Assembly (NCBI GenBank): GCA_963555755.3
Contig: OY820905.2
Location: forward strand, 4,545,745-4,609,744
Length of the DNA: 64,000 nucleotides
DNA from: Nitrospirales bacterium
GTDB lineage: Bacteria; Nitrospirota; Nitrospiria; Nitrospirales; UBA8639
Direction of reading: 5' to 3'
Part shown: positions 15,785 through 48,798 of the stretch, one piece after another
Position numbering within the stretch: the stretch's first letter is position 1
Layout of the letters: each line of letters begins with the position of its first letter
The notes under the pieces: generated by a model
What the model was told of the DNA's origin: nothing
The model's input: the letters and a program-made list of their open reading frames with translations, nothing else
The model's database searches: none
Made by a program: the position numbers and the translations under genes

Positions 15785-16274
15785 ACCTAGAATCGGCAGT
15801 TGGATCACAAAAGTCCGCGCAAGCTATTGGCGCACCTAGGAGCCTGTCCAAGATTAGACAGATCTACTGCGGGTGCGCTGGGTTTGGCCAGATCTTTCGA
15901 TCCTTTTCGTTAAATAGTCACCACTATTCGCCTCAAACGATCGAAACATCTGACTCAAACCAGACCCCCCTCGTCACGATCGCTAATCTCGGACAGGCTC
16001 CTCACAAAATACAAAAATATCTTATCACCACGGAGGGTTCGCGCAAGAATACCTTCCCCGGTTTGGGTGCTGAGACACCTGTCTGGCAAGGCGCGAGGAC
16101 TGCGCATACTCCTCGTATGGAAAGGACGAGCAACGCCGCCAGAAAGGATGGATCGACGCCCAAACCGGGGAAGGTATTCTTGCGCGAACCCTAAGGTGAC
16201 CACGACTTTGTGTATTTCACCAGGCACACCAATTTCTTACACGTCTTTTTTGCGCCCAACTGCCGTTTCTAGGT
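15785..16274. mobile_element. Composite MITE A containing C (15840-16000) and B (16035-16191)
   Basis: A TIRs ACCTAGAA.CGGCAGTTGG / CCAACTGCCGTTTCTAGGT with TGA duplication; C TIR GAGCCTGTCC; B TIR GGGTTCGCGCAAGAATA. Confidence 0.88.
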
Positions 16275-16340
16275 TGAAAAGATAGATGCCGTTTTTGCGG
16301 GAATAATGCCCAGGGTTTTCATAGTGTTCCCCAAAGAGCC

Positions 16341-16622
16341 TTGATGAACAATCTTCCTCGTATTGAAATCGAATATTGCACGCAATGTCGGTGGCTATTG
16401 CGGGCGGCATGGATGGCGCAGGAGTTGTTGACGACGTTTGAGGAAGAGCTGGGTGAAGTGGCGTTGATTCCTGGGACCGGTGGGGTGTTTAACGTTCGTG
16501 TAAAAGAAAAATCGGTTTGGTCGCGGGAGCAGCAAGGGCGGTTCCCAGAGGTCAAAGAACTGAAACAATTAGTCCGGGATGTTATTGCCCCTGGAAAAGA
16601 TCTTGGGCATTCGGAACGATAG
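16341..16622 (+). CDS. Rdx (SelT/SelW/SelH) family protein, Cys form
   Basis: IEYCTQCRWLLRAAWMAQELLTTF...GGVF...FPEVKELKQLVRD...LGH. Confidence 0.92.
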   Translation: MMNNLPRIEIEYCTQCRWLLRAAWMAQELLTTFEEELGEVALIPGTGGVFNVRVKEKSVWSREQQGRFPEVKELKQLVRDVIAPGKDLGHSER

Positions 16623-16666
16623 AGAGGATAGCCGATGGGCTATTTATCGTAAGAAAAATGCCTGGT

Positions 16667-16861
16667 CTATTCAAAAAGCGGAGCTTGCGGTCCGACATGG
16701 AGACCAGCCAAATCAGGATCTTCTCCTTCTAGGGTCTGAGGTCGGTCCTCTGCATTTTGGACTTTTTTAAAGGCCTTTCGTTCTAGCTTATCTTTTTGTT
16801 TCATTTGCAAGGCTCGTTCCCTATTACGCTTGGCCGTCGTGGTTTTCGATGGTTTTCCCAT
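16667..16861 (-). CDS. Small basic conserved hypothetical protein
   Basis: KRNRERA...K.ERK...EDPDLAG...GPQ pattern; GGAGG RBS immediately upstream. Confidence 0.7.
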   Translation of the reverse strand: MGKPSKTTTAKRNRERALQMKQKDKLERKAFKKVQNAEDRPQTLEGEDPDLAGLHVGPQAPLFE

Positions 16862-17204
16862 ATCCCTCCGTCGTGTTGTTTCCCTAATTGACGTTGTGAC
16901 TGGATGGTGTCATTACCCGGAGCCACAACATGACAAGAAAAATGTTTATTATTGATCGTGAATGTGATCGTGAATGTGCTGGGTAAGAAAATAACATCGG
17001 GTGGGTGGCCTGTCAAATGGGGTTGGAGTGGCCCTTTGTAGTCGGTGTTAAGGCTTGGGGTGCTTGGAAAATACGAACATATTACCCAATTGACAAAGTT
17101 CGGTTATCGGAATAAGCAGAATCATTGGTATATTGGTCTTGGACACGGATTGTCCCACTGGCCTGTTTCTGTCTTGGGAAGATGAACAATTGGAGGTGAT
17201 TGCC

Positions 17205-17378
17205 ATGGACGGAATAAAAACAATTTTAATGGTGATGGTTTTGGTCCTACTTGCGTGTTCTCCAGAAATTGGGAGTAAGGCGTGGTGTGAGAGTATGAAG
17301 GATAAATCCAAAGGGGATTGGACTGCCACCGAAGTCAAGGATTTTGCCAAACACTGTTTGTTGGACCTTGGAGAATAA
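17205..17378 (+). CDS. DUF3012-like small lipoprotein
   Basis: GGAGG RBS at 17192, lipobox LLAC, then SPEIGSKAWCESMKDKSKGDWTA.E...FAKHC. Confidence 0.8.
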   Translation: MDGIKTILMVMVLVLLACSPEIGSKAWCESMKDKSKGDWTATEVKDFAKHCLLDLGE

Positions 17379-17679
17379 ACCAGGGCTGATTTTCGAGAAA
17401 CAGGAGTCCTTCTCATCGGTGAGGAAATGCATGTTTCTTCCGCTCTTCCTTTCTTAAGGGTTGTATTGAGTGCACCAACCCGTTTTCTCCATTTTTTTAC
17501 CTCCCACCTCATTTAATACACTCCTATATCTTAAGCGAGACATTCTGATCTTTGGAGACCTGTATGATTCCTTGTCCAAAATATAATTTTTCTTAGTTGT
17601 GCCTTTCGGGAACCATGGGTGGCCGTCCGCAGTGAGTGTATCTGTCCTTCTCAATTTTCGAGGAAAGGAGGGAGGCAAG

Positions 17680-18117
17680 CTAATCTAAAAAATGAAGGTT
17701 GGCTCGTCGCCGAAGGTGATACCGGTCTAAGGCACGAACCATGTGGCCTAAAATTTGATGGGAAGGTTTCCCGTCTTTTGTTTGAAGTTTTTGAAAGAGG
17801 ACCCCGACCTTTCCAGTTATTGGGGAGGTGACCGACCCATGTTGAAAATGTTGAATGACTCCTGTTGCCCAAACTATTTTTTTATCTAGTATCAGTTTCA
17901 GGTGAATTTCTCTTCCCAAGGACAAGAGGTTCGTTCTCCACTCCGGCATTTCCAATAGGGACCCTTCCAAGCTTAAATTGTCAATGGTGACGGCCCAGTA
18001 TTGTCCTCCCTCAATTTCCAAAATGCCTTCAACTAAGGGAAATGCTTTAACATCCTGCAATCGTAGGGACGCTCGACGATCAGCGTGTTGAGGGTGAGAC
18101 GATTGTGATTGATTCAT
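17680..18117 (-). CDS. PilZ domain protein
   Basis: RRASLR (RxxxR) and NLSLEG (NxSxxG) c-di-GMP-binding motifs. Confidence 0.7.
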   Translation of the reverse strand: MNQSQSSHPQHADRRASLRLQDVKAFPLVEGILEIEGGQYWAVTIDNLSLEGSLLEMPEWRTNLLSLGREIHLKLILDKKIVWATGVIQHFQHGSVTSPITGKVGVLFQKLQTKDGKPSHQILGHMVRALDRYHLRRRANLHFLD

Positions 18118-18374
18118 GGGGCAACAGAAATTTGAATTAAGTAAACCCTAGAAGTCAAATGTCGTCAGAGATTTTTCGTTTCATGCATTATTGATGACAT
18201 TGCCTGATCTGTTCTTTGTATCGGTTGGATTAGTAGATGGCCAAAGCCGAGGATGCGAGGAAGATGGAAGCTTTATCGTTACAAGGATGGATGATGAATT
18301 GAATGAAAGGGATGAGGGCTAAATCTTCCTCAACGATGACGAAATGGACGAAACAGGGCTCATCTGATAGTTCA

Positions 18375-18538
18375 ACCTAGAAACGGCAGTTGGATCACAA
18401 AAGTCCGCGCAAGCCCTTGGCGCACCTGGCAAAATACAAAAAGGTCTCATCACCAGAGAGGTGACACGACTTTTTGTATTTCACCATGCACACCAATATC
18501 TTACACGTCTTTTTTGCGCCCAACTGCCGTTTCTAGGT
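18375..18538. mobile_element. Empty (unnested) MITE A, 164 bp
   Basis: Perfect TIR ACCTAGAAACGGCAGTTGG with TCA duplication. Appears identical to the inverted copy at 30854-31017. Confidence 0.9.
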
Positions 18539-19252
18539 TCAATGGACGATCACATGGCTGTCCCGATATTCCACCCGAGAAATAGCTAAGGGCTCTAAAA
18601 GCCTAGTTCGAATGGGCCCTGTTGAAAGTCTTTCCGGGTATTTGGTATTCACATTTCTTTTTGTTTTCCTTATTTTGTGGTTTCTTGGGTGTCCGCCTTC
18701 CGTATTCTTCCCCTCAGCCTGTCGGTGTAGGAGTCTATCGTTTGTCCGAGTTTTTTATCATTAAATACCCGTCACCTCACTTTTTCCATCACCATCGTCC
18801 ATAACTGTCAGAATGTTTTTTGAGGTTCTGCGTTTGAGGTGGCTCGCTGGGCTCTCCTGCAATCTTACCCCTTTGAATTAGGATAGTGTGGATGGGGTGT
18901 TGACGGTGGAAACCATTCTGGTCGTCTGAACATGGATCGCCAAATGAATTAACCGTTTAGCCAGATTAACCCTAACAGTTGTACCTATGTGGCCAATTTC
19001 ATCTTGAGATGGTAAGGAGGAACACAGGAGGAGTGTTATGAGGGTACCGTCAATCTTTCGGAACTGCCTGCTCGCGGGTTCATTCATAGCATTGTGTGCT
19101 ACGACTAGCTGGGCGGTGCCGGTAAAATTACCATTGAACCCAGTGGAAACATGGGTGGATTCGGTTATAGCGTCATTCACAGGGCGAGTCATGGATCGGG
19201 GGGCCATCCCGGTTATTACATTGGGTGGAGCCTTTTGTATGACAACATTATT

Positions 19253-19382
19253 GGGATGGATCGACGCCCAAACAGGGGAAGTTATTTTTGCGCGAACCCT
19301 AAGGTGACCACGACTTTTTTTATTTCACCATGCACACCAATATCTTATACATCTTTTTTGCGCCCAACTGCCGTTTCTAGGT
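19253..19382. mobile_element. Left-truncated A[B] composite MITE
   Basis: Right end of B (to 19299) followed by the right arm and TIR of A. Confidence 0.8.
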
Positions 19383-19422
19383 TCAATATCACGAGTGGGT
19401 CCTTAGTTCAGCAGCCGAATGG

Positions 19423-20860
19423 GAGTCAAGCCCAAAGTTAGTTGAAATTCTCCACGGCTCCGAGGTTCATATTAGGCAACCTTCTTCATCGAGGTCTTCC
19501 CAATGTTTAACTCTTGTTGCAGTGCCTCACGCAAGCGTGGCAAGTGCCGATAGCCCTTGACTCTGCGGAGCCGTGGCTCGATATCCAGCAACGCCGCGGC
19601 CAACCACCGCTGCCGCTGATTCGAGTTCGTCCAGCGATCCACCTTGGCACACCGCTCTTCCACCAAGGCATTGATGGATTCCAGACAATTCGTCGTTTTG
19701 AAGGACAGACCTACCAGAGCAAACACCCCCAGCCGATGCAACGTCAACGTGTCCTCTAGACCTTCCGCCAAACTCCGAGCCGCCGATTGGTTGCGGTCCT
19801 CCAGTTCCGTCTGCAGGTGCGTGAGTGCGGCTCTCGCTTCCGCATAGGTCGGGCGCTGATACGCCCGTTGAAGCCGGCGTCGCCACGTGGCCTGGTCGCC
19901 TTTCGGTACATGGCTGACGACATTCTCCCGTTTGTGCCACTGGCACCGCTGCCCCAGGGCTGAGTGGCCAAAGGCGTGGCGCACGGCCGCTCGCAGGCCT
20001 TTGCCCCCATCAATGCTGACCACCAACCCCTGGGAACTGGTGAGGCCGCGCTCCCCCAACTCCTGAAGAAAGGGCGTGAGGCCTTGCTCATTTTCCGTTC
20101 CCGTTTCCACAAACCCCAGGACGTGTTTCTCGCCCGTGAGCGTGATCCCGATCGCCACGACCCTCGTCATGTCGGCAACGGTCTTGCCATCGAGAAAGAT
20201 GGCGACGATGTCTCGCTCACGGCGGTCGCGTTCCTGCAGTCCCTTGAGTGGCTTGGCGCTGGCATCCGTAAAACTCCGCGACACCGTCGCGCTTGACAAG
20301 CCAATCGCCCCAGGGACTGCGGCCGCCGCCGCCTCATAGTTCCGGCAGGAAATCCCATACAGCACGCGTTTGAGCCGGACCTCATCCAGCTTACCTGTCC
20401 CACGGAGGTGGGTCAGGCGCTGTAAGGCCATTTCGCCACCCCCCACGTACTGAACGCGAGGAATCGGCAACGGATGCCGTTGCCCCGCCAGCCGGACACT
20501 CCCGGGATTACTCCCATGCCGGCGGCCAGGCAGCCGAGCCCCCTTCCGTTCATCCCGGGCCCCGGCCACCGCACACACTTCGTCCTCTAAGAGCTCCTGA
20601 ATCCGCATCAGACCCAAGGGGATGAGGGCCTGAATACATTCCACCTTGCTGTTCACATCGAAGGCCTCATACTGCTCGGGCCGAATCACCCGCACGGCCC
20701 CCAAGCGGCGCGTCTTCTTGCTTCTCGTTGTCGTTTTCGCAATACTGCGCATGAAGTGGCTCCTTTTTTTCTGTTGCTGAGATGTCGATTCTTCGTCGAA
20801 CGCCATCTCACCACAGGTGGGGGAGCCGCTTCAAATTTCAACTAACATTAGCACACACTC
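19423..20860 (-). mobile_element. IS256-family insertion sequence
   Basis: Imperfect ~39-bp TIRs (GAGT...GTTAGTTGAAATT...CGGCTCC). Direct repeat CCGAATGG at 19415-19422 and 20861-20868. Confidence 0.9.
19472..20752 (-). CDS. IS256/Mutator-type DDE transposase
   Basis: FLDG, SIDG, QRCQWHK, TTNCLESIN. ATG at 20752 follows AAGGAG; the ORF is open to 20806. Confidence 0.9.
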   Translation of the reverse strand: MRSIAKTTTRSKKTRRLGAVRVIRPEQYEAFDVNSKVECIQALIPLGLMRIQELLEDEVCAVAGARDERKGARLPGRRHGSNPGSVRLAGQRHPLPIPRVQYVGGGEMALQRLTHLRGTGKLDEVRLKRVLYGISCRNYEAAAAAVPGAIGLSSATVSRSFTDASAKPLKGLQERDRRERDIVAIFLDGKTVADMTRVVAIGITLTGEKHVLGFVETGTENEQGLTPFLQELGERGLTSSQGLVVSIDGGKGLRAAVRHAFGHSALGQRCQWHKRENVVSHVPKGDQATWRRRLQRAYQRPTYAEARAALTHLQTELEDRNQSAARSLAEGLEDTLTLHRLGVFALVGLSFKTTNCLESINALVEERCAKVDRWTNSNQRQRWLAAALLDIEPRLRRVKGYRHLPRLREALQQELNIGKTSMKKVA

Positions 20861-21330
20861 CCGAATGGGTTTGTTGATGGTGAGGTCAATTATATCCTGA
20901 CGAGTGGACCTTCCGCCGGTTCTGGGACGTTTTATTTTGATGCGATTAATTTTATGAATAACAGCACTGGGCCCAACCGTCTTTCTGAAACGTCGTTGAT
21001 GATCTGGGCCAACAATTGGGATACAGAGGGTTCTGAATCGGGACCCTCTTATGGTGCTTTGGGGGTTAATCTGAAAGGGAGTCTGCAAGCAATACCCGAA
21101 TCCAGTACAGTGCTTTTGATCGGCACTGGCCTTGCCGGATTGATTGGGTAACGGTACCGGAAATCTTAGGGATAACCATCTCGCTGGGTCTCATGCGCAC
21201 AAACAGTTCGAGCCTCATTCCTCAGGCAGTGGAGTTCGATTTTTTTTTGCGTAGACGAAAGGCAGGAGATGAGGGACAATGCATGGAGAGTATGTGAAAT
21301 GCGTACAAAAAAAGCATTGGGGACATTGGC

Positions 21331-23896: not shown

Positions 23897-24537
23897 GGAC
23901 CTGAGAGAAAAGAACTTGGCCATCTCGCATCCAATCTTCGGGCCATCATTGAACCTAGAAGCAGCAGTTGGATCACAAAAGTCCGCGCAAGCTCTTGGCG
24001 CACCTAGGAGCCTGTCCAAGATTAGACAGATCTACTGCGGGTGCGCTGGGTTTGGCCAGATCTTTCGATCCTTTTCGGGGAATGTTGAAAAAGGCCCCCA
24101 GCTGCGTTCTCGGGCTTTTGGCGTGCTCACGTACTCCGTGTACGCTCCGCGCGCCAAAACCCCTGCGGCCTTGCTGGATGGCCTTTTTGAACATTTCCCG
24201 TTTTCGTTAAATAGTCACCACTATTCGCCTCACACGATCGAAACATCTGACTCAACCCAGCACCCCCTCGTCACGATCGCTAATCTCGGACAGGCTCCTC
24301 GCAAAATACAAAAATGTCTCATCACCACCGAGATGACCACGACTTTTTGTATTGCACCATGCACACCAATATCTTACACGTCTTTTTTGCGCCCAACTGC
24401 CGTTTCTAGGTTGAACGGGCCTCAATCGAAACACCCTCACCATCGCTGTGCTATGCCTCGGGTTTTCCTCAATCGTTCCGTCCCAATCCGACCTAAATCT
24501 TGGCGCGATATTGTCCAAGTTATTTTCTCTCAGGTCC
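23897..24537. mobile_element. Four-level nested MITE: E > A (23953-24411) > C (24008-24297) > F (24076-24200)
   Basis: Each level has its own TIRs and duplication: TTA (E), TGA (A), CTAG/CTCG (C), TTTT (F). Removing inner elements restores the unnested forms seen elsewhere in the window. Confidence 0.88.
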
Positions 24538-29461: not shown

Positions 29462-29736
29462 CAGGGAATGTTGAAAAAAGCCGCCAGCCTACGCTTAAGC
29501 TTCGGCCGACGGGCCAGCGGCGTTCTCGCCATTTTGCCGTGCGCACTACTTCATGTACGCTCCGCGCGTCAAAATGGCTGCAGCCTTGCTGGACGGAACC
29601 TTCGGAAAGACCTCAGGGCATGCTTTTTGAACATTTCCCGTTTTCGTTGAATAGTCCAACTATTCGCCTCAAACGATCGAAACATCTGACTCAAACCAGC
29701 ACCCCCTCGTCACGATCGCTAATCTCGGACAGGCTC
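29462..29736. mobile_element. MITE F variant (29462-29640, with two REP-like inserts) plus the right half of C
   Basis: CAGGGAATGTTGAAAAA...TTTTTGAACATTTCCCG, then the C arm ending GGACAGGCTC-CTAG. Same F/C junction as at 24200. Confidence 0.8.
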
Positions 29737-30041
29737 CTAGGTGGTGCAGGTGAGAGTCACAGGAAAAAAAGTGTGACAAAGAACACAACGTTGGAGTGAT
29801 AGGAGCCACGGCTATCATTTGTTGTAATGGAATATAATTAGTGCCCTTGAGAGAAAGGGGGAATATCTCCGCAATCGAGATGGTCGTGGCTCTATCGCTG
29901 GCAAAGGTCATTGCGGCTGAGGGATGAGCTCGGGATCTTCCCCCTCTTTTCAGAAACACATTCTTTTCAGCCATTTTATGCTGTTTGCTAACGCGCTGTC
30001 CATTTTTTTCTCGACATACGAACAATCTCTTTATGTACTTA

Positions 30042-31017
30042 GGACCTGAGAGAAAATAACTTGGACAATCTCGCATCCAATCTTCGGGCCATCTTTGAAC
30101 GGGCCTCAATCGAAACACCCTCACCATAGCTGTGCTATGCCTCGAGTGTTTCTCAATCGTTCCGTCCAAATCCGACCCCAATCTTGGCGCGATATTGATC
30201 AAATTATTTTCTCGCAGGTCCTTAGGGTCCGTCACGAAATAACCGAGACAATTGGCCGAGACGATTTTGGAGCGAGCCAAGGAGCGAAGAGCGCGCATAC
30301 CGGGAGTATGGAAGCGATGAGCGACGCCGGCGCAGCCCAAAAGCGTCCGGCCCTCCGGGGAGGCCCATCTTTGGCCCGGGGCGGCGTTGCTCCTCGGTCA
30401 CAGAGCCCCGCTCTGCTCCCTCGTCGCGCCTTGCCCCGATCACAAATCTGGGCCTCCCAATTGTCCCGGTTATTTCGTGACGGACCCTGAGCGCACCAAG
30501 GAGCCTGTCCAAGATTAGACCGATCTACTGCGGGTGCGCTGGATTTGGCCAGATCTTTCGATCCTTTTCGTTAAATAGTCACCACTATTCGCCTCAAACG
30601 ATCGAAACATCTGACTCAAACCAGCCCCCCCTCGTCACGATCGCTAATCTCGGACAGGCTCCTCGCAAAATACAAAAAGTCGTGGTTACCTTAGGGTTCG
30701 CGCAAAAATAACTTCCCCTGTTTGGGTGCTGAGACGCCAGTCTGGCAAGGCGCGAGGGCTGCGCATACTCCTCGTATGGAAAGGACGAGCAACGCCGCAA
30801 GACGGAATGGATCGACGCCCAAACAGGGGAGGTTATTCTTGCGCGAACCTTTAACCTAGAAACGGCAGTTGGGCGCAAAAAAGACGTGTAAGATATTGGT
30901 GTGCATGGTGAAATACAAAAAGTCGTGTCACCTCTCTGGTGATGAGACCTTTTTGTATTTTGCCAGGTGCGCCAAGGGCTTGCGCGGACTTTTGTGATCC
31001 AACTGCCGTTTCTAGGT
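30042..31017. mobile_element. MITE cluster: E (30042-30221), D (30225-30487), C (30501-30661), B (30694-30850), inverted A (30854-31017)
   Basis: TIRs of each family are present; neighbouring elements share TTA; A-derived spacers flank C. Confidence 0.85.
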
Positions 31018-31761: not shown

Positions 31762-32352
31762 ACCTAGAAACCGCAGTTGGATCACAAAAGTCCGCGCAAA
31801 CTCTCAGGGTCCGTCACGAAATAACCGAGACAATTGGCCGAGACGATTTTGGAGCGAGCCAAGGAGCGAAGAGCGCGCATACCGGGAGTATGGAAGCGAT
31901 GAGCGACGCCGGCGGAGCCCAAAAGCGTCCGGCCCTGCGGGGAGGCCCATCTTTGGCCCGGGGCAGCGTTGCTCCTCGGTCACAGAGCCCCGCTCTGCTC
32001 CCTCGTCGCGCCTTGCCCCGATCACAAATCTGGGCCTCCCAATTGTCCCGGTTATTTCGTGACGGACCCTGAGCGCACCTCGCAAAAGAGAAAAATGTCT
32101 CATCACCACGGAGGGTTCGCGCAAGAATACCTTCCCCGGTTTGGGTGCTGAGACACCTGTCTGGCAAGGCGCGAGGACTGCGCATACTCTCGGTATGGAA
32201 AGGACGAGCAACGCCGCCAGACGGGATGGATCGACGCCCAAACCGGGGAAGGTATTCTTGCGCGAACCCTAAGGTGACCACGACTTTTTTTATTTCACCA
32301 TGCACACCAATAGCTTACACGGCTTTTTTGCGCCCAATTGCCGTTTCTAGCT
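31762..32352. mobile_element. Composite MITE A containing D (31807-32069) and B (32113-32269)
   Basis: A TIRs with TGA duplication; D TIR GGGTCCGTCACGAAATAACCG; B TIR. Confidence 0.88.
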
Positions 32353-32526
32353 TGAATATTCCTGCCGAAATAAGTGGATGTTTACCTTCCTCATGTTTTT
32401 GTCATTTTTAAGTTTGCCAAGACACGCCTTGCTTGTTTTTTGCGTGTTGTTTCATGCAGACGACTACCCTGAATTTTGTGTGTGAATAGCCTGGTCGAGT
32501 CATTCCCTCCTTCTGGATTCTTTTCA

Positions 32527-32667
32527 GGGCACCTCTAAAAACCGTCCTTTTCCGTGATGGCGGCGTCAGCCGCGTGCTCAAATCCTCATGTATTCGCCCA
32601 TACACTCCGGTTTTCCGCGCGCAGCTTCCTTGCCCTCACAAAAAATGCCGGGTTTTTAGAGGTGCCC
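32527..32667. mobile_element. MITE G, 141 bp
   Basis: TIR GGGCACCTCTAAAAA with 4-bp duplication TTCA; second copy at 43522. Confidence 0.85.
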
Positions 32668-32840: not shown

Positions 32841-33614
32841 ACCTAGAAACCGCAGTTGGATCACAAAAGTCCGCGCAAGCTCTTAGGACCTGCGAGAAAA
32901 TCACTTGATCAATCTCGCATCCAATCTTCGGGCCATCTTTGAACGGGCCTCAATCGAAAAACCCTCACCATAGCTGTGCTATGCCTCGAGTGTGTCTCAA
33001 TCGTTCCGTCCAAATCCGACCCCAATCTTGGCGCCATATTGATCAAGTTATTTTCTCGCAGGTCCTTAGGGTCCGTCACGAAATAACCGGGACAATTGGC
33101 CGAGACGATTTTGGAGCGAGCCAAGGAGCGAAGAGCGCGCATACCGGGAGTATGGAAGCGATGAGCGACGCCGGCGGAGCCCAAAAGCGTCCGGCCCTCC
33201 GGGGAGGCCCATCTTTGGCCCGGGGCGGCGTGGCTCCTCGGTCACAGAGCCCCGCTAGGCTCCCTCGTCGTGCCTTGCCCCGATCACAAATCTTGGCCTC
33301 CCAATTGTCCCGGTTATTTCGTGACGGACCCTGAGCGCATCTGGCACAATACAAAAATGTCTCATCACCACGGAGGGCTCGCGCAAGAATAATTTCCCTT
33401 GTTTTGGTGCTGAGGCGCCTGTCTGGCAAGGCGCGAGGACGGCGCATACTCCTCGTATGGAAAGGACGAGCAACGCCGCCAGACAGGATGGATCGACGCC
33501 CAAACATGGGAAGTTATTTTTGCGCGAGCCCTAAGGTGACCACGACTTTTTGTATTTCACCATGCACACCAATATCTTACACGTCTTTTTTGCGCCCACC
33601 TGCCGTTTCTAGGT
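32841..33614. mobile_element. Composite MITE A containing E (32886-33065), D (33069-33331) and B (33375-33531)
   Basis: A TIRs with TGA duplication; same E-D tandem as at 30042-30487. Confidence 0.88.
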
Positions 33615-35179: not shown

Positions 35180-35336
35180 GGGCTCGCGCAAGAATAACTT
35201 CCCCTGTTTGAGCGTCGATCCATCCCGTCTGGCGGCGCTGCTCGTCCTTTCCATACGAGGGGTATGCGCAGTCCTCGCGCCTTGCCAGACAGGTGTCTCA
35301 CCACCCAAACAGGGGAAGTTATTTTTGCGCGAACCC
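35180..35336. mobile_element. Stand-alone MITE B, 157 bp
   Basis: ~33-bp TIR, TAA duplication in CTAAG. Confidence 0.88.
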
Positions 35337-36429: not shown

Positions 36430-36471
36430 ACCTAGAAATGGCAGTTGGACGCCCAAGTGCCGTTTCCAGGT
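36430..36471. repeat. Mini-A: the two MITE A TIRs fused with the interior deleted
   Basis: ACCTAGAAATGGCAGTTGG-ACGC-CCAAGTGCCGTTTCCAGGT. Confidence 0.8.
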
Positions 36472-37030: not shown

Positions 37031-37187
37031 GGGCTCGCGCAAGAATAACTTCCCTTGTTTGGGCGTCGATCCATCCCGTCTCGCCGCGTTGCTCGTCCTT
37101 TCCATACGAGGAGTATGCGCAGTCCTCGCGCCTTGCTAGACAGGTGTCTCAGCACCCAAACAGGGGAAGTTATTCTTGCGCGAACCC
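37031..37187. mobile_element. Stand-alone MITE B, 157 bp
   Basis: B TIRs flanked by CTTA and TAAG. Confidence 0.88.
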
Positions 37188-38332: not shown

Positions 38333-39155
38333 AGGAATCGAATACTAGCAAATCACTACTCGACCAGGCTAGTGCGGGGATTACACGAGAATCGACAGGT
38401 TCATGAGTAGGAACCCACTCCAGCTCGGATTGAGCCCCGCCCCGCAGGCAAGTTCCTAGCCCTCCTTCCGCTGTGGGCTTTTCGCATCGTGGCGTAGGGT
38501 CTCACCTTCAGCAAACTAGAGCATTTAAAACATTTACAAGACATTGGAAAACCACCAGGTCCTCTAAAAAACTGAAGGCTGGAACCTTCAGTTAGCGCTG
38601 CCCGTTTATCCATCCCCCTGGGCATTCACCCAGTTTAACCCCTTGATGGGTCAGTGGAAATCTTCAAACAATCGAAGTTGCATTTTCTTTGCTCATGTAA
38701 ATGACAAGATCAATGTCCATGGGCAACGAGTTGACAACAATAGGTTCTACGAAAGGGTCAAACACGGAGTGTTGATAAAGGTGTGTCTCTTTCTCAGACA
38801 AGCAGGGGAGAAGGGCATCTTTCCTACAGAATACGGGCATGAGGGAATACATGACCCCAGTGGGAAGGGTGTCCACTCCTAACCGTGTCAATCAAATTCA
38901 GACTTGTGCGTTAACACAGAGACTGACAATTAGTATTCATCACCCATTACCATTCAAGGGGGCAAACGATGGATCATACAGAATATATGGTTCTATCCTA
39001 CCGCCATCCAATTCTGGCCCCATGGAGTTTCTTGGCCATGGCGTTGCTTCCTGTGAGCGTTCTTTCTTGTGTCGCTGCACGATCGTATCGTGCCCTCTTC
39101 CCACGGACCAAGGGGCTCTGACGCCAGGAAGAGGCAGCATGAGATGCTGCAGCGA

Positions 39156-41189
39156 GTGCGCCTGTGAAGGCGTTTGATCAGGAGGGTGCAAGTCCCTCTC
39201 AGGCGAACGTTACCAGCCTGAAGTCGACAGTGGTAACTGCGTTTCCGTGAGGAAGGGTGGAGAGCAATCTGAGACGAACGACCAGTCCGTAACGAACGTG
39301 AACTCGATTCGGCCAAGCCTGTCGGGGAGGCTCCTAGCGATGTCCGAACCCTTGATCGCGCGACGGCAGATCCCTTCGACCTGAGAGTCTGCCCGGGGGA
39401 TAGACGCGGCAAGTCACGGCGGTGACGTAACGTGGGAAAGCGACCGTGGCGAAATGGCAAGGTGGTGGTTGGAGATGGAATGGTCGGAAGGTCAAACGAG
39501 CTAAGCAGGGAGATCTGTCGGGTGAAGGACGTGGACGACGTGTCGTGACCATTCGCAGTGGGGGACGCTGCGTGATCAATGGCCCAGGCCCCTCGGTGCC
39601 GTATCGCGTGCCGCAGGGGAACGAACGAAGCGATGCCGATGACGTTGGATGAAGCGGCTCGACAGAAGTCAGAGCTCTCATAATAGCTGGGAAGCCGTGC
39701 AGCATAACGCGGTGGAGCAAAGGGGAGCAGGAAGGTAGATGTGAAATGACTAAACCGCCGACACGTCGAGCCTCGACCCCGCGTCGAGATTACATCCCAG
39801 TCACAGTGCCGTTTTCGGCTACCCCGGCTGGGGAGCTTCCTGGGATCGACCAGTGGGCTCATCGAGCGGTTTGGACAGATCGCATGGTGGCGACACTGAT
39901 GGCAGACAAAGTGAGAGGAGGCAAATGGCACACGTTGAGGGATAAGGTGTCTGGCAGCCTGAACCTGTCCTGCTCGGCCAAGAAGGTCCTGGGCAAGAAC
40001 GGGGCTGCGGGCGTTGACCGGCAAACGTGTTCGGAGTTCGCCGAGCATGAGCGGGCGGAACTCGATCGGTTGCAAGCCGAACTGGGTGACGGAACCTATC
40101 GTCCGGCAGCGGGGCGGCGGCGGTGGATTTCCAAACCCGACAGGTCGGCGAAGCGCCCGTTGGGAATTCCGACCGTGCGGGATCGCGTCGTGCAAACGGC
40201 AGTGGTCCACGTGCTTGAGCCGATTATGGACGCCATGTTCCATGCGCGAAGCTTCGGCTTTCGCCACGGACGCGGGTGCCATGATGCCCTACGGTGCGTC
40301 GAGGAATGGCTCGACGCCGGGTATGTGTATGTTGTCGACGCGGATGTGCAGGAGTACTACGAGACGATTCCGAAAGATCGACTGTTGGCCAGAGTGCAAC
40401 AGAAGATCTCGGATCGCCGTGTGTTGGGCCTGGTGAAGAAGTTTCTGAACCAGGGGATTCTGGAAGAACTGCGGGAGTGGACGCCGGAAGCCGGTGTGCC
40501 GCAAGGCGCGGTGCTGTCTCCCATGCTGTCGAATGTCTATCTCAACCCCCTGGACCATCGGATGTCCGATCTCGGATTTCAGATGGTGCGCTACGCGGAT
40601 GACTTTGTCATCCTGTGTCGCACGCCGGAAGAAGCCGAAGCGGCGCTGGCCGAGGTGCGCCGGTGGGTGGAGGCCAAGGGGCTGACACTGCATCCCGAGA
40701 AAACACACATCGTGGACTCGCGGGAGAAGAGCTTTTCGTTTCTGGGCTATTCGTTCCGAGGCCGGCTGCGGTTTCCACGAGCGAAGAGCCACCGAAAGTT
40801 CATCGCCCGCATCCGCGAGCTGACGCCGCAGAAATCGGGCGACTCGCTGGCGGTAATTCTCCACCGGCTCACTCGCTCGACGCAAGGGTGGTTCAACTAC
40901 TTTCGGCACTGTTTTTGGAACATCTTCAAGGCCTACGATGGAATGATCCGTCGGCGGTTGCGCCGGATGCTTCTGAAAAGGAACCGAAGGAATCGACAAC
41001 GCCTCGCACGCAATCAACGGTGGCCGAACGCCTTCTTTGCGGATCATGGGTTCACGAGCCTGAATGATGCCCATATTCGTTTCGTCCACTCCATAGGAAC
41101 CTACTGACTGGAGAGCCGTATGCGGGAGAACTGCACGTACGGTTCGGAGGGAGGGGGAGCGCAACTCAATGCGCCCTCCCTACCCCTAT
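39156..41189 (+). mobile_element. Complete group II intron (IEP lacks endonuclease domain)
   Basis: 5' end GTGCG at 39156. Domain V GAGCCGTATGCGGGAGAACTGCACGTACGGTTC (41113-41145, AGC triad). Domain VI with bulged A at ~41182 and ...CCCCTAT end. Confidence 0.92.
39746..41107 (+). CDS. ltrA: Group II intron reverse transcriptase/maturase
   Basis: AAGVD, RPLGIPTVRDRVVQ, SFGFR, VDAD, GVPQGAVLSP, RYADD, FSFLGY, domain X GWFNYF; no HNH domain. Confidence 0.93.
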   Translation: MTKPPTRRASTPRRDYIPVTVPFSATPAGELPGIDQWAHRAVWTDRMVATLMADKVRGGKWHTLRDKVSGSLNLSCSAKKVLGKNGAAGVDRQTCSEFAEHERAELDRLQAELGDGTYRPAAGRRRWISKPDRSAKRPLGIPTVRDRVVQTAVVHVLEPIMDAMFHARSFGFRHGRGCHDALRCVEEWLDAGYVYVVDADVQEYYETIPKDRLLARVQQKISDRRVLGLVKKFLNQGILEELREWTPEAGVPQGAVLSPMLSNVYLNPLDHRMSDLGFQMVRYADDFVILCRTPEEAEAALAEVRRWVEAKGLTLHPEKTHIVDSREKSFSFLGYSFRGRLRFPRAKSHRKFIARIRELTPQKSGDSLAVILHRLTRSTQGWFNYFRHCFWNIFKAYDGMIRRRLRRMLLKRNRRNRQRLARNQRWPNAFFADHGFTSLNDAHIRFVHSIGTY

Positions 41190-42896: not shown

Positions 42897-42927
42897 TCGG
42901 GAAGAAAAGAAGAAGACTGAGTTCTTG

Positions 42928-42961: not shown

Positions 42962-43027
42962 TTGGAGATGCGTGTGGCCCTTGGATAGAGTTGCGGGGGG
43001 GGAGGGTACACCATTCAAGACCCGACC

Positions 43028-43348
43028 CTACTTCTTCTTTTTTTTGGATTTCCCCCACGTTTCTTTTAGCAGGGTCTTCCACTCCTCGCGAGAAATCGCT
43101 GGCATGGTCTTAATACGAATATGGCCCATCGAGGCATTCAGCACACCGGCCTTCATCGCGGCGCGATTATGCGGAAAATCCCAAATGGCCACAACATCAT
43201 ACTCACCCAAGCAATAATAGGCGTGAAGCAATTTGCCGCCCAAGGCTTCCACATTCTGCTTGACCATGTCTGACCGAGCCTCACCTTTAGCCCTCATGGT
43301 CTTCAGTCCATCATGGGTAAAGTTCACTAAGCTGACGTAGATTGGCAT
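43028..43348 (-). CDS. GYD domain protein
   Basis: MPIYVSLVNFT..G...VEALGGKL..AYY.LGEYDVVAI. Confidence 0.85.
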   Translation of the reverse strand: MPIYVSLVNFTHDGLKTMRAKGEARSDMVKQNVEALGGKLLHAYYCLGEYDVVAIWDFPHNRAAMKAGVLNASMGHIRIKTMPAISREEWKTLLKETWGKSKKKKK

Positions 43349-43521
43349 GGTGCACCCCTTGGTTGGTGACGTGAATAATAAAGCGCTCGTGTTTGAGGGA
43401 AGATGTGAGTATCCTAAATGAAAAGCCAGATAAAGGATAGCCACTTTTCTGATGACTGGTCAGGCGAAGGACGAATCCAACCTGACGCAAGACCAATGGG
43501 AATTTTTAAATATTAAATAAA

Positions 43522-43662
43522 GGGTACCTCTAAAAATCGTCCTTTTCCGTGATGGCGGCGTCAGCCGCGTGTTCACATCCTCATGTATTCGCCCATACAC
43601 TCCGGTTTTCCGTGCGCGGCTTCCTTGCCCTCACAAAAAATGCCTGGTTTGTAGAGGTGCCT
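43522..43662. mobile_element. MITE G, 141 bp
   Basis: Homologous to 32527-32667; 4-bp duplication TAAA. Confidence 0.85.
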
Positions 43663-43987
43663 TAAAGGAAAAGGCGAGCAACCGGTCATGAGAAATAGAA
43701 CGCCGCCTGTGAAGTATTGAAGTGAAAAAATCATGGCAAGGGGCGTCAAGAAATATTAAATGATGCACGATTCAAGACCTGACCTTTTACGTTTTGGAAT
43801 GGTTCAAGCGTACCTTTGATGCCGGTGCCGTATGGAGTTACGAGGAAATCACGTTCTGCAAGGTTTTCGGAATCTTCTGAGTATCTGCATTCCCAGAAGA
43901 AAAGAACTAGGCTAATTTTGAACAATGAAGTTAAAAAAACTCCCGACCCCTTTCTGTTTTCTTGGAGCGCATGTTTTGTTAAGCAGC

Positions 43988-44155
43988 CTACGTCTCCTCA
44001 CCCCCATCAAGGCAGTTCGTGCATTCATCCAATTTGGGTTCTCCATGGTTGCTGCAATAATGACGGGAGCATCGTGCGCAGACCATAAAACTCATGAGTA
44101 TCGTATCCGCTTCCTCGCACACATAACAATTTTTTTCTCGTTTGGCTTTCGGCAT
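43988..44155 (-). CDS. 55-aa Cys/His-rich putative zinc-finger protein (absent from ORF track)
   Basis: MPKAKREKNCYVCEEADTILMSFMVCARCSRHYCSNHGEPKLDECTNCLDGGEET; AAGGAG 7 nt before the ATG. Confidence 0.7.
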   Translation of the reverse strand: MPKAKREKNCYVCEEADTILMSFMVCARCSRHYCSNHGEPKLDECTNCLDGGEET

Positions 44156-44455
44156 ATTTCTTCTCCTTCATCGTGATCATGTAAGGCGCCATTTGCCGCA
44201 AAGCCATCCCCGACGGTGTTGGGGTGGGGCAAGGATCCTAGTGTGTCATTTCCGGCCGAGGGCTTGGACCCCACTATTGGCGGGAAGTCGGGAAGGGCGT
44301 CTATCTAGTGAAGACGCGAGGATGTTGCGCTGATTGGTAACAGGGTGAGACTACCGTATGACACCACTGTATAGCAAACTAGCGAGGTTTGATCGCATGG
44401 TGCTGATCAAGTCATAATCAAGGAAATACACAACCCTCTTTCTCCCACGTTTGAC

Positions 44456-45316
44456 ATGTCCATTCAATGGTTTCCCGGTCACATGAATACGGCGCGCCGA
44501 GAGGCCGCCAAGACGATAGCCTCCATCGATGTCATCGTCGAAGTGCTGGATGCTCGTATACCAGAAGCCAGCAGCAATCCGATGATCACGGAATTGCGGC
44601 GGCAGTGCCAGCGTCCTTGCCTGAAAGTTCTCAACAAAGCCGACCTTGCTGACCCCGCCGTCACCCAAGCCTGGTTGAACAAGTATAACCAGGAAACTGG
44701 CGTGAATGCCGTAGCCCTTGCCGGTAATCGCGTTGGGCAAGCCGCCAAGGTCCCCAGTCTGTGTCAACCTCTCGCCAAGCATCGCAGCACGACCACGAAA
44801 CCGCTACGCATGCTGATCATGGGCATTCCGAATGTTGGCAAATCCACACTCATGAACACGTTGCTCAAACGCCGCATCACAAAAGTGGGCAACGAACCCG
44901 CTGTGACAAAAAAACAGCAACGCCACACTCTCAACGACCGAATGACGCTCATCGACTCCCCGGGCCTTTTGTGGCCAAAAATCAAAGACCCGGTCGTGGG
45001 TTTTCTGCTCGCCACGATCCATGCGATTGGCGCCAATGCTGTCGTCGATGAAGAAATCGCCGAGTTTCTCGCAACCACTCTCCTTACACGCTACCCAGGA
45101 CTGCTCACGGCGCGGTATGGATTTGGGGAAGATGGGCTAGATGGCGCAGGCGTGCTTGAATCCATTGCCATCAAACGGGGATGCTTGCGTAAAGGAAAGG
45201 GCGGGGAACTAGACAGAGAAAAAGCCGCAAAAATTTTGCTAAACGAATACCGCAACGGCACATTAGGCCGCACGAGCCTGGAGTCTCCAACCACGCCTGA
45301 GGTCCCTACCGTATAA
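44456..45316 (+). CDS. rbgA: Ribosome biogenesis GTPase RbgA/YlqF
   Basis: IQWFPGHM, DARIP, NKADL, GIPNVGKST, DSPG (circularly permuted GTPase). Confidence 0.93.
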   Translation: MSIQWFPGHMNTARREAAKTIASIDVIVEVLDARIPEASSNPMITELRRQCQRPCLKVLNKADLADPAVTQAWLNKYNQETGVNAVALAGNRVGQAAKVPSLCQPLAKHRSTTTKPLRMLIMGIPNVGKSTLMNTLLKRRITKVGNEPAVTKKQQRHTLNDRMTLIDSPGLLWPKIKDPVVGFLLATIHAIGANAVVDEEIAEFLATTLLTRYPGLLTARYGFGEDGLDGAGVLESIAIKRGCLRKGKGGELDREKAAKILLNEYRNGTLGRTSLESPTTPEVPTV

Positions 45317-45527
45317 TCATTCACCTCGTAGGCCCGACTGTCACGATAGACAGAAAATCACCGTACCAACATTCCCCGCTACTAGGCTTTCAGAGGAAAG
45401 GTCTAGGGAAAAAAGCAACTCGATCATGGTCTTTGATCATCGTCAGGACTCTTGTTCGGGGATGACCTGTCACCAGACGCGGCGTATCCGGTCCTGTGTC
45501 AACAATCCAAATGAGCGACACGCAGGC

Positions 45528-46070
45528 TTAGTCGTCCAGCATGGGCTCAGGGACCCCACCGATCATCGAAAAAATCAGCCCGCCAATCACGGCTTGTACA
45601 ATCCATCCAATAAGACATACGCCAATGGCTCGGTACGTACTGTGATAATCCAAGGCTTGGCGCACGGCAATCACCATGGCCACGAGCATCCACACACTCG
45701 CAAGAAGATTCACAATAGCGTCTAAGCCTGGAATGATGCCGAGAATCCGAATGATGCCTGGGGCGCTCGAAAAGCCAATTGTCCGAAGCAGTTCACCATG
45801 ATCAGCAGAGGTTTGGGGTTCGGGCAAAAGTTTCGTGCCAATGATGTAGGTCAAAAAAGCCCAGATATACCATCCGAGCAAGGAAAAAACCGTGCCGAGC
45901 AACAGCCCCATCAGCCCGGATTCTTGCATGAACCCAATCCCACCGGCCACGCTTGATAATACGACGACGGCCATCGCCTGGCTCATCGCATTCTTGTCGG
46001 CCTCCACTTCTTCATAGACCTGAACATCGAGTTTTGCCGCTCGTACCATCCGATCAACAAACTGGGTCAT
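45528..46070 (-). CDS. YIP1 family membrane protein, copy 1
   Basis: RMVRAAKLD...YEEVEAD, multiple TMs, LLRTIGFSSAPG, VIAVRQALD. Confidence 0.8.
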   Translation of the reverse strand: MTQFVDRMVRAAKLDVQVYEEVEADKNAMSQAMAVVVLSSVAGGIGFMQESGLMGLLLGTVFSLLGWYIWAFLTYIIGTKLLPEPQTSADHGELLRTIGFSSAPGIIRILGIIPGLDAIVNLLASVWMLVAMVIAVRQALDYHSTYRAIGVCLIGWIVQAVIGGLIFSMIGGVPEPMLDD

Positions 46071-46339
46071 AATGGTCGATCTCCTTTCCCTCACGAGGGA
46101 TAATGTACATGAAAAATGAAAAGATTGGTGCCCTAGGGGGAAGACAAGAAGCAATTATGAGGAACAGGCTGAGAAAGATCTACTCTTTTTCGGTGGGGAA
46201 TCAACTGAAATTTTGATGAGGGGAATTCGTGTAGCGAATGATCAAGGGAAATGGGGCTGATTCTTGGCCCTTCATCCGTTGTCCGCCGTGCCCGAAGTGG
46301 TCGGCGGGCATCCCTTCTCATGTCGGCATTTTTCCTTCT

Positions 46340-46456
46340 GTCATTCCCGCCATTTGCAATCGAGAATCCATCCACATTTCGTCATTCCCGCCATTTTTAA
46401 TCGGGAATCCATCTTCAAATTTCCTCTCCTTTGTAAGGAGAGGGCAAGTGAGGTAG
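46340..46456. repeat. REP-like palindrome cluster
   Basis: Two GTCATTCCCG-N10-CG(A/G)GAATCCA units, then CCTCTCCTT-TGT-AAGGAGAGG. Confidence 0.65.
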
Positions 46457-46466
46457 AGTCTTAAGC

Positions 46467-47315
46467 ATGAACGTAGATCTCATCATTCGAATCAGCGCGT
46501 TTGTGGGAATCTTCGCCGCGATGGCTGTGTGGGAAATGATGTCGCCACGTCGTCAATGGCAGGTGGCCAAAGCCAAGCGCTGGGTGATCAATCTGGCCAT
46601 GGTGGGATTCAACACGCTCTTCACCCGAACCCTCTTAGCCTCAGGCGTCTTAGGGGCGGCGGTCCTGGCAGGGCAGAGAGAGGTGGGGCTCTTCCATCAA
46701 CTGGATTGGCCTTGGTGGGCAGAACTCATCATCGCAATGATCGTGTTGGATTTGGTGGTGTATTTTCAACATGTGCTCATGCATGCCGTCCCCATACTCT
46801 GGCGATTACACATGGTGCATCATTCCGATTTAGATATCGATGTGACCACCGGCGTTCGGTTTCACCCGATCGAAATTGCTCTGTCGATGTTCATCAAAAT
46901 CGGAGCCGTTATTTTGATAGGCGTGTCACCCACCGCCGTGCTCATATTCGAGGTCATGCTAAATGCGACCTCCATGTTCAACCATAGTAACGTGTGCATT
47001 CCCGTGCAGGTGGATCGCATGCTCAGGTGGATCGTGGTCACCCCCGACATGCATCGGATTCATCATTCCGTCATCCCACGAGAGACCAACCGTAACTTTG
47101 GATTTAACTTGCCGTGGTGGGATCGTGTGCTCGGCACGTACCTGAGTGATCCTAGCAAAGGACATGAACAAATGACGATCGGTCTTGAACAGTACCGAGA
47201 CTCTACCCGGCTCACCTGGCTGGGCCTCGTGGCCTTACCGTTTGTCGGAGAAATCGGGAAATACCCAACGTGGCATGACGAACAGAACGAAGTCGAAACC
47301 GAAAACGAAAAATGA
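46467..47315 (+). CDS. Sterol desaturase / fatty-acid hydroxylase family protein
   Basis: His boxes HVLMH, HMVHH, RFHP, NHSN, HRIHH; NFG...WWDR..GTY. Confidence 0.9.
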   Translation: MNVDLIIRISAFVGIFAAMAVWEMMSPRRQWQVAKAKRWVINLAMVGFNTLFTRTLLASGVLGAAVLAGQREVGLFHQLDWPWWAELIIAMIVLDLVVYFQHVLMHAVPILWRLHMVHHSDLDIDVTTGVRFHPIEIALSMFIKIGAVILIGVSPTAVLIFEVMLNATSMFNHSNVCIPVQVDRMLRWIVVTPDMHRIHHSVIPRETNRNFGFNLPWWDRVLGTYLSDPSKGHEQMTIGLEQYRDSTRLTWLGLVALPFVGEIGKYPTWHDEQNEVETENEK

Positions 47316-47433
47316 ATGAGATGGTGGTCGAAAAGAATCCGAAACCTAGCACTGATTTGCCAAGAAATTTCTGTCGTATGAGAAGTGAAATCTCCTTATT
47401 CCCCGGTGCTCTGCAAAGGGGTAACTATTAATG

Positions 47434-47467
47434 TCCCCCCTTTGGAAAAGGGGGGTAGGGGGATTTT
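47434..47467. repeat. REP-like palindrome between convergent genes
   Basis: CCCCCCTTT-GGA-AAAGGGGGG followed by TAGGGGGATTT. Confidence 0.55.
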
Positions 47468-47498
47468 CCAATCATATTGTTTCCTTTAATAGCGGCGC

Positions 47499-48041
47499 TT
47501 AGTTATCCAGCATTGGCTCAGGGGGTCCACCCATCATCGTAAAAATCAATCCAATAATCACGGCTTGCACAATCCATCCAATAATACACACGCCAATGGC
47601 TCGGTACGTACTGTGATAATCCAAGGCTTGGCGCACGGCAATCACCATGGCCACGAGCATCCATATACTCGCAAGGATATTCACAATTGGGCCTAAGCCA
47701 GGAATAATGCCGAAAATCCGAATCATACCGGGGGAGCTCGAAAAGCCAATCGTCCGAAGCAGTTCACCATGATCAGCAGAGGTTTGGGGTTCAGGCAGAA
47801 GTTTCGTGCCAATGATGTAGGTCAAAAAAGCCCAGACATACCATCCGAGCAAGGACATGACCGTGCCCATCAACAACCCCGTCAGCCCGGATTCTTGCAT
47901 GAACCCAATACCACCGGCCACGCTTGATAACACGACAACGGTCATTGCCTGGCCCATGGAACTTTTGTCGGCTTCCACTTCTTCATAGACCTGAACGTCG
48001 AGTTTGGCAGCGCGTACCATTCGATCAACAATCTGAGTCAT
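47499..48041 (-). CDS. YIP1 family membrane protein, copy 2
   Basis: Colinear, same-length paralog of 45528-46070. Confidence 0.8.
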   Translation of the reverse strand: MTQIVDRMVRAAKLDVQVYEEVEADKSSMGQAMTVVVLSSVAGGIGFMQESGLTGLLMGTVMSLLGWYVWAFLTYIIGTKLLPEPQTSADHGELLRTIGFSSSPGMIRIFGIIPGLGPIVNILASIWMLVAMVIAVRQALDYHSTYRAIGVCIIGWIVQAVIIGLIFTMMGGPPEPMLDN

Positions 48042-48309
48042 AATGGTCGACCTCCTTTCCCTCACAAGGGATAATTTTCACTAGAATTGAAAAGGATTGT
48101 GCCTAATGGGAAGACAAGAAGCAATTATGCGGAACAGGTTGAGAGAAATCTATCATTCTTCGGTGAGGAATCAACTAAAATTTGGATGAGGAGAATTTGT
48201 TTGGCGAACGTTCAAGGAAAAGATTTCTGAGCCTTTCTTCATTTCCTAAAAATAAATCTGTCCCCTTTTCTTTTTTCTCAAAATGATTATCTAGGGACTT
48301 ATTGCTTTA

Positions 48310-48798
48310 ACCTAGAAACGGCAGTTGGGCGCAAAACAAACGTGTAAGATATTGGTGTGCATGGTGAAATAAAAAAAGTCGTGGTCACCTTAGGGCTCGC
48401 GCAACAATAACTTTCCCTGTTTGGGCGTCGATCCATCCCGTCTGGCGGCGTTGCTCGTCCTTTCCATACGAGGAGTATGCGCAGTCCTCGCGCCTTGCCA
48501 GACAGGTGTCTCAGCACCCAAACAGGGAAAGTTATTGTTGCGCGAACCCTTAGTGGTGATGAGACATTTTTTATTTTGCCATGTGCGCCTAGGAGCCTGT
48601 CCGAGATTAGGGATCGTTGCGAGGGGGTGCTGGTTTGAGTCAGATGTTTCGATCGTTTGAGGCGCATAGTAGTGCCTATTTAACGAAAAGGATCGGGAGA
48701 TCTGGCCAAATCCAGCGCACCCACAGTAGATCCGTCTAATCTTGGACAGGCTCCTTGAGCTTGCGCGGACTTTTGTGATCCAACTGCCGTTTCTAGGT
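48310..48798. mobile_element. Inverted composite MITE A containing B (48393-48549) and C (48593-48753)
   Basis: A TIRs; B with TTA/TTA duplication; C sits at a different site in A than at 15840. Confidence 0.88.

Follow-up and report, generated by a model that had tools for sequence, protein, structure and literature searches.

The 64,000-nucleotide stretch of a Nitrospirales bacterium genome analyzed here (the window; C1:4545745-4609744 of the genome designated G000) contains numerous copies of a short non-coding element, A, some of them empty and others loaded, directly or one inside the other, with elements of five further families, B to F. Our analysis suggests that this nested cargo probably goes back to a few founder insertions, followed by homology-templated copying (gene conversion) of cargo between dispersed A copies. 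The genome comprises 4.62 Mb in two contigs (C1 and C2) and is 99.44% complete. When consensuses were made for families A to F and the main contig was peeled from the innermost element outward, 650 full-length elements were obtained (A 116, B 164, C 77, D 38, E 105, F 150), 141 of which were nested, with one edge case outside the assignment; 453 partial matches, 86 of them to A, were excluded from these counts. Altogether the six families occupy 3.2% of the genome.

Fifty of the 116 full-length A copies were loaded, with 83 cargoes in total, and these cargoes lay exclusively at three sites of A, namely 44/45 (D 29, E 10, C 4, B 1), 54 (C 12) and 85 (B 27), in a single orientation per family throughout (83/83), while seven of the eight possible combinations of loaded and empty sites were seen. 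The genome-wide census thereby upholds the three cargo sites that an earlier note on this DNA had read from the window. Such a concentration was reached in none of 20,000 uniform simulations, which treat the events as independent, which they are not. Outside the census, one A copy of the related genome G005 (L394, G005:C211) had site 85 occupied by a cargo with a start unlike that of any of B to F. The target duplication is 3 bp (TWA) for B, D and E but 2 bp (TA within CTAG) for C, and D- or E-loaded copies showed T-N-A on both sides in 29 of 29 cases. Empty A sites, however, are mostly not transposase targets: a single one of 83 empty alleles at site 45 read TTAG, while 46 read CTCTTGGCG; at site 85 only 1/89 alleles read CTAAG, and at site 54 only 3/104 read CTAG. 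Moreover, odd junctions go with the lineage of the cargo and not with the host. The degenerate junction CGGA-[B]-TAAG (GGA/TAA), to which the earlier note had drawn attention, is real and occurs in 12 of the 27 copies with B at site 85, and the B lineage that carries it sits on many unrelated backbones.

A direct test made use of A insertions shared with relatives. Flanks of A-bearing stretches from G005 (~95% identical to G000), G006 (~90%), G018 and a few other genomes, all fragmented assemblies that are 64-91% complete, were mapped onto G000. Among 206 distinct A ends examined, 86 could be placed; of the other 120, 48 matched nothing, 55 had matches that were not adjacent, 12 lay beside a repeated flank and 5 gave short matches. 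The placed ends fell at positions where G000 is without A in 69 cases and where it has A in 17, the latter representing 16 shared insertions. The cargo state was the same at only 4 of these and different at 12, of which 8 were clean swaps between loaded and empty (5 loaded in G000, 3 in the relative) and 4 were deletions or ambiguous. At C1:1055520, for instance, both genomes have in common a private variant 6-8 bp to the left of site 54, at which G005 has C and G000 reads CTGG. If older insertions were more often loaded, shared ends should be loaded more often than absent ones; the loaded share among typed shared ends (5/13) and among absent ends (7/58) differed in this expected direction, but the sample is biased and the comparison was not used.

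At the locus C1:4437630, the insertion, both unique flanks and 11 private backbone marks are common to G000, G005 and G006. In G005 and G006 the element is empty (CTTGG or CTTGA at 45, CAAAG at 85), while in G000 it carries D and B. Because G006 is the more distant genome (median identity 90% versus 95%) and is also empty, D and B were most simply gained in place. The B at this locus differs by 1 nt from those found at site 85 of other A copies, among them the window copy at 48393, and its seven nearest B relatives all have site-85 junctions, none of them a solo context. At site 85, CAAAG had become CTAA on one side of the cargo and TAAG on the other, and marks 9-15 bp from the junctions were retained. 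At C1:78245, differences extend ~35 bp into the right arm, so that the lengths of the exchanged tracts appear to vary.

Cargo and A backbone sequences are likewise uncoupled across the genome, with A in E only partly so. Mantel tests of cargo against backbone distances gave rho values of -0.15 for B at site 85 (n = 27, p 0.88), 0.15 for D at site 45 (n = 29, p 0.15) and 0.03 for C at site 54 (n = 12, p 0.45), and similarly -0.05 for F in C (n = 33). Within one B lineage of 15 copies the cargoes differ by 2.9/157 nt and their backbones by 12.8/142. In addition, backbones with identical single nucleotide polymorphisms (SNPs) occurred as empty copies and as D-loaded copies differing in their junctions, and a near-identical one was loaded with E and D. 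In line with these results, a near-identical twin elsewhere was found for 26 of 66 empty A copies and for none of the 50 composites.

The copies in the window, on the plus or minus strand as indicated, are as follows.
15786..16273, plus: A with C at site 54 and B at site 85; TTGAA duplication on both sides; the whole element is missing in contigs of public runs X13 and X14
15839..16001, plus: C cargo at site 54 of that copy; its ends match an IS1182-family element
16035..16191, plus: B cargo at site 85 of that copy; degenerate GGA/TAA junction lineage
18376..18537, plus: empty A; TTCAA duplication; one of seven identical copies genome-wide
19253..19382, plus: truncated B (111-157) joined to A (85-165)
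23897..24537, plus: E hosting at its position 56 an A composite, with C in A and F in C
23954..24410, plus: A within this E, with the F-bearing C at site 54
24007..24298, plus: C within this A, with F at C position 70
24077..24199, plus: F, the innermost element of this nest
29513..29737, plus: truncated F and C fragment
30042..30850, plus: E-D-C-B string in the same order as in A, linked by A-interior pieces, without A ends
30855..31016, minus: empty A; TTTAA duplication; identical to the copy at 18375
31763..32351, plus: A with D at site 45 and B at site 85
32842..33613, plus: A with E and D at site 45 and B at site 85; E and D stacked with one common TTA; the whole element is missing in one contig of run X10
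35180..35336, minus: solo B
36431..36470, plus: A reduced to its terminal inverted repeats (TIRs), 40 bp; flanks TTGAA and TTCAA (imperfect)
37031..37187, minus: solo B
48311..48797, minus: A with C at site 44 and B at site 85; imperfect duplication; B differing by 1 nt from the one acquired in place at C1:4437630
10662..10821, plus: hybrid in which a B end is joined to a D end; own TTA duplication

All eight A copies that the earlier note had listed (15785, 18375, 23953, 30854, 31762, 32841, 36430 and 48310) were present with the contents it gave, except that it had overlooked the outer E around the otherwise correctly described copy at 23953. Its picture of a modular, nested, non-autonomous system with combinatorial cargo holds as well, but A is not the one-way carrier that it proposed, as A is itself found as cargo in E at position 56 (18 copies, 17 in the same orientation) and once in C; F in C lies at 69/70 in 33 copies, all in one orientation. 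Likewise, most intact window copies do have their own duplication (a perfect 5-bp repeat in 6 of 7 full-length copies, the exceptions being the 48310 copy and, in addition, the TIR-only copy), while the conclusion that they inserted independently as composites does not follow, since orthologues change their cargo afterwards.

One alternative is that cargo transposases repeatedly hit the same positions of the A hairpin, so that every loaded copy would be independent. Such docking would account for the presence of three or more B lineages at site 85 and of two C lineages at sites 44 and 54, and it is consistent with the position of site 85 in the apex loop of the A fold and of site 45 beside a local loop. 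Unrelated elements use A too, since partial A copies contain a REP-like repeat at position 83 in ~5 cases and an IS110 element at the A end, in the TIR, in 3, and the IS1182 partner of C has an open frame in G000. The empty alleles, however, mostly lack the target word and are overwritten upon loading, the non-target GGA/TAA junction recurs in its 12 copies on unrelated backbones, and a single orientation per family is kept despite palindromic targets. That the cargo imported its own flank by ordinary transposition was considered and rejected, as B of the same lineage has ordinary TWA-type flanks at unique sites. Furthermore, the B gained at C1:4437630 resembles B borne by composites and not the 131 solo B copies, and the only consensus TWA of A (position 128) is unused in 116 copies. 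Repeated docking therefore appears unlikely. The earlier note had further proposed that nesting preceded the spread of the composites, each of which would have arisen once and been amplified whole by the A transposase, with the combinations resulting from later loss and mutation. Perfect 5-bp duplications flank 27 of 41 solo loaded copies, nearly as in solo empty ones (38/56), the closest composite pair differs by 4/431 nt and another by 8/614 nt, close strains are without whole composites, deletion scars were found at C1:718921 and C1:907108 (in the latter copy from site 45 to 85), and an autonomous element of ~1.67 kb would place 940 bp within range, all of which such a history would explain. 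It would not explain the uncoupling of cargo and backbone, the lack of composite twins in comparison with empty A copies or the gain in place that the outgroup polarizes at C1:4437630. Precise excision, examined as a source of the empty copies, was discarded, as it should leave CTNAG or CTAG while the empties read CTTGG, CTGG or CCGAG. We consider amplification of ready-made composites equally improbable.

Assembly artefacts at near-identical repeats could in principle mimic both combinations and swaps, as the relatives are fragmented, some of their contigs join different flanks across B or E, and whole composites are unspanned by any public contig. On the other hand, G000 is nearly complete in two contigs, public contigs with zero differences run from unique flanks into A ends, the same cargo junctions are contained in G005, G006 and G018, and at C1:4437630 two separate assemblies agree in both flanks and the private marks, which makes this explanation very improbable.

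Several observations nevertheless weigh against copying between A copies. The placed loci are not a random sample, most swaps are supported by one flank only, and at L268, L273 and L274 the left and right flanks map to different G000 loci, with some contigs joining across B or E. At C1:4437630 the identity to G005 is 92% upstream and 98% downstream of the element, and given this lower upstream identity inter-strain exchange may have brought part of the locus. Where A lies in E, cargo and host sequences are partly coupled (rho 0.43, p 0.007), and most of the 87 empty E copies have a true TTGAA target at position 56, as expected if A docked there repeatedly. A few composite pairs are 98-99% alike and loading at 45 and 85 is correlated (p 1e-4), both of which fit movement as units, and linkage of backbone SNPs shows no decay with distance, so that recurrent mutation contributes too. 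Moreover, homology arms of ~10-30 bp are short for RecA-type recombination, and exchange is inferred here from the states of the copies.

Founder insertion and subsequent copying could have proceeded as follows. Empty A enters TTNAA with a 5-bp duplication, as the empty orthologous sites described below illustrate, presumably through the action of an IS1380-like transposase, and rare A alleles with TWA or CTAG would then have taken founder B, D, E or C. Judging from the sequence, E and D may stack because insertions regenerate the target beside themselves. Chromosomal A copies gain or lose cargo in place, as seen at the orthologous loci; gained cargo brings the junction bases of its donor, and backbone marks 9-15 bp away can stay, as at C1:4437630. 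Cargo is probably transferred by ectopic recombination or template switching at stalled hairpins, and the fixed sites and orientation would represent founder effects propagated by homology. Part of the cargo is also lost by short-homology deletion, as the scars show, and some composites probably still move as units. MutS is present in the genome; mismatch repair that corrects single mismatches but passes over large loops would favour short apparent tracts, and may do so here.

A is 163 bp long and has CC..GG ends, TIRs of ~19 bp and a hairpin fold with z = -9.1. In contrast to the TNA duplication and length of 164 bp given previously, an outer-base test indicated a 5-bp duplication, TTNAA: non-canonical outer bases were duplicated across A in 7/10 and 6/13 informative copies, but across B in 0/29 and 0/33. 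Empty orthologous sites, of the kind that the earlier note had recommended looking for in relatives, were found: at L290 the A insertion of a relative has ATCAT on both flanks while the empty site of G000 is a single ATCAT, and at another A insertion of relatives the empty site of G000 is a single TTTAA. At window 15781-16278, the empty target in runs X13 and X14 differs at the middle base from both duplicated copies in G000, which could reflect polymorphism or assembly. The seven identical empty copies genome-wide, together with the absence of whole elements in close strains, point to recent A activity. A thus combines a short non-coding hairpin with TIRs, a target duplication with empty orthologous sites and an autonomous element with the same ends (see below), the features of a miniature inverted-repeat transposable element (MITE). 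Mirror positions of the hairpin covary (58/108, 63/103, 61/105 and 54/112), and this covariation between the arms would fit templated copying within the hairpin. The cargoes fold as separate hairpins and leave the A stem intact.

No transposase in the window matches A, as had been noted, those present being of the IS256 and IS4 types. A scan of species genomes for A ends returned at least 115 stretches, which came from several phyla and in 80 cases included flanks. Among the stretches listed most were short, often ~165 or 236 bp, and one (L061) was 1676 bp long and contained a transposase, which supplies the autonomous element whose existence the earlier note had suggested checking. This protein matched DDE_Tnp_1_4 (PF13701) with 80.8 bits (cut-off 34.7) and the IS1380 model NF033539 with 151 bits, under the cut-off of 180, and was 23% identical to the ISEcp1 transposase; a second partner protein, scanned only up to an internal stop, reached 149 bits on NF033539 (cut-off 180). 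Metagenome homologues of the partner had an A-type end at 74 of 80 loci and both ends at 45 of 80, and the middle three bases of the duplication agreed in only 13 of 45 full-length metagenome copies. In G000 a remnant of 91 amino acids with the right end persists at C1:562136-562480, and that query retrieved nothing more there; G002 and G006 contain longer IS1380-like copies with stops or frame breaks. The closest outside matches to A itself among those listed were 92% identical, in records titled Nitrospirae and Nitrospinota. A also typifies a group of MITEs that share one conserved end in several phyla and are now tied to an IS1380-like transposase. Among the listed stretches (L013-L092) the A-type 19-bp end occurred in records of Proteobacteria, Chlamydiae, Verrucomicrobia, Acidobacteria and Nitrospirae, and the lengths of the short A-ended elements cluster at ~165 and 236 bp though their interiors are dissimilar, some of the 236-bp ones having a B-like core.

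As for the cargo families, the 3-bp duplication matched in 77 of the 97 solo B copies and 57 of the 65 solo E copies that have TNA on both sides, and outer bases were uncopied; the mismatched duplications of solo B (n = 97) were skewed, with TTA/TAA 13 times and TAA/TTA once. C shares 18/19 terminal bases with a two-copy IS1182 element of G000, the open frame of which encodes a DUF772 and DDE transposase (NF033551, 375 bits, cut-off 270). Some IS1182 members duplicate the 4 bp CTAG; in C the outer bases were copied in 0/7 and 0/2 informative solo copies. The TWA-duplicating B, D and E are presumably IS5-like. Searches of G000 with the DDE_Tnp_4, DUF4096 and DDE_5 models yielded no autonomous partner for them, and the ISAzo13 model was blank in G000 but matched no control genome either and is hence uninformative. 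Scans for their end patterns over 201 and 301 genomes found one short E-ended element and unrelated matches only, and viral scans and plasmid searches for a partner gave nothing usable. With regard to a possible similarity of the core of B, D and F to enterobacterial ERIC, B had no blastn match in E. coli genomes; a B-like core recurs in A-ended and E-ended elements elsewhere. Two candidate partners were rejected: a 2042-bp E-ended element with a 544-amino-acid open reading frame (ORF) at C1:2549815 proved to be an unrelated insertion sequence (IS) inside E with its own ends and a CCCGA duplication, and an IS5-like element with GGG ends duplicates TA, not TWA. The IS inside E (G000:C1:2549815-2551856) measures 1.85 kb, and we take its transposase to be IS1634-like. 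A TA-duplicating IS5-like element (L447, G000:C1:2884829-2886535) sits in the centre of C, near the A and F insertion points, and a multi-copy cassette with F-like ends, an IS110-like ORF and a 6-bp duplication (L448, G000:C1:2352800-2354700) occupies the core common to B and D, in this case in B and at other places in D. The ends of B, D and E may be interchangeable, as suggested by the B/D hybrid at 10662-10821 and by the deletion from site 45 to 85 at C1:907108.

The window contains further repeats. An Rfam scan of it found only tRNA and a group II intron domain, the latter at 41111-41189 within a repeat of ~2.2 kb (38993-41189) that has more copies in the genome. The IS256 and IS4 family elements (19423-20862 and 53424-54923) are both multi-copy with ends unlike those of A to F, and an extra high-copy repeat outside these families (~32526-32666 and 43521-43661) has very deep coverage in public runs. 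Local duplications at 45526-48221 and 55257-61835 comprise two Yip1 genes, two S4-domain genes and a second RapA C-terminal piece. Elsewhere in G000, the 14-kb contig C2 largely repeats C1 near 4.14 Mb. The public DNA runs that contain the window stretch include marine sediment metagenomes.

In comparison with known systems, A resembles the IS1380 family in that its partner has a DDE_Tnp_1_4 domain and A duplicates 5 bp, as is described for ISEcp1 in the part of PMC12589106 used here; it differs in a partner under the NF033539 cut-off, in the TTNAA preference and in a 19-bp end present on short elements in several phyla. No MITE of this IS1380 subgroup was found among the papers that a literature search listed, and the main text of a survey of prokaryotic MITEs contains neither 'nested' nor 'IS1380' (PMC11602168). 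C is similar to IS1182 MITEs in its termini but duplicates 2 bp, not 4. IS that target REP-like repeats, reviewed together with bacterial MITEs in the portion of PMC3184786 available to us, would explain founder events but not the overwritten junctions. A bacterial parallel is the pneumococcal BOX (boxA-boxB(n)-boxC), a modular MITE-like repeat whose orthologues change size in place and which, together with RUP and SPRITE, takes part in mutual insertion, according to the available text of PMC3049150. As described there, its modules are tandem copies explicable by slippage or unequal crossover. In contrast, A has no tandem internal module: its cargoes are whole MITEs of at least four distinct families, with their own ends and solo copies, which enter empty sites without a tandem template. 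Multimers of the plant MITEs Tourist, Castaway, Gaijin and Ditto are likewise nested, with some families as preferred targets, and are attributed to independent insertions in the consulted part of PMC5172404, whereas the shared junctions and uncoupled backbones found here point to copying. TIMEs, as far as the available text of PMC4133298 describes them, form composites by capturing DNA between two copies, and the available text of PMC2759123 adds nothing on nesting. A literature search that covered few subscription journals and no supplements revealed no description of bacterial MITE copies exchanging cargo in place.

Taken one step further, founder insertion and copying might amount to transposase-free homing, in which a nested MITE spreads to the copies of its host family by short-arm templated copying with a bias towards gain. 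We regard this only as a tentative possibility, somewhat less probable than its opposite; one locus is polarized as a gain (C1:4437630), while scars of loss are seen too. If homing occurred, dispersed hairpin repeats would form an exchange network in which orphan elements multiply after the loss of their transposase, and D would exemplify this, as 29 of its 38 full-length copies lie inside A and the searches yielded no partner for it. In a comparable way, inteins and group I introns spread into empty cognate sites by templated repair, with fixed position and orientation. The difference is that no homing endonuclease is known here, that the exchange would concern dispersed repeats of one chromosome and that losses occur as well.

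At the loci described here, inserts of 160-450 bp can be followed as they move between dispersed bacterial repeats with no signature of transposition, and records at this resolution are rare. If copying of cargo is indeed the cause, copy number and flanking duplications do not tell how often nested MITEs have transposed, and a second route of multiplication is open to non-autonomous elements. Loci represented in three genomes allow a direct test of how fast, in which direction and over what tract length ectopic conversion acts. In summary, relative to the systems compared above, the parts are ordinary MITEs, and the unusual part is the locus-level evidence for in-place transfer of one MITE between the copies of another.

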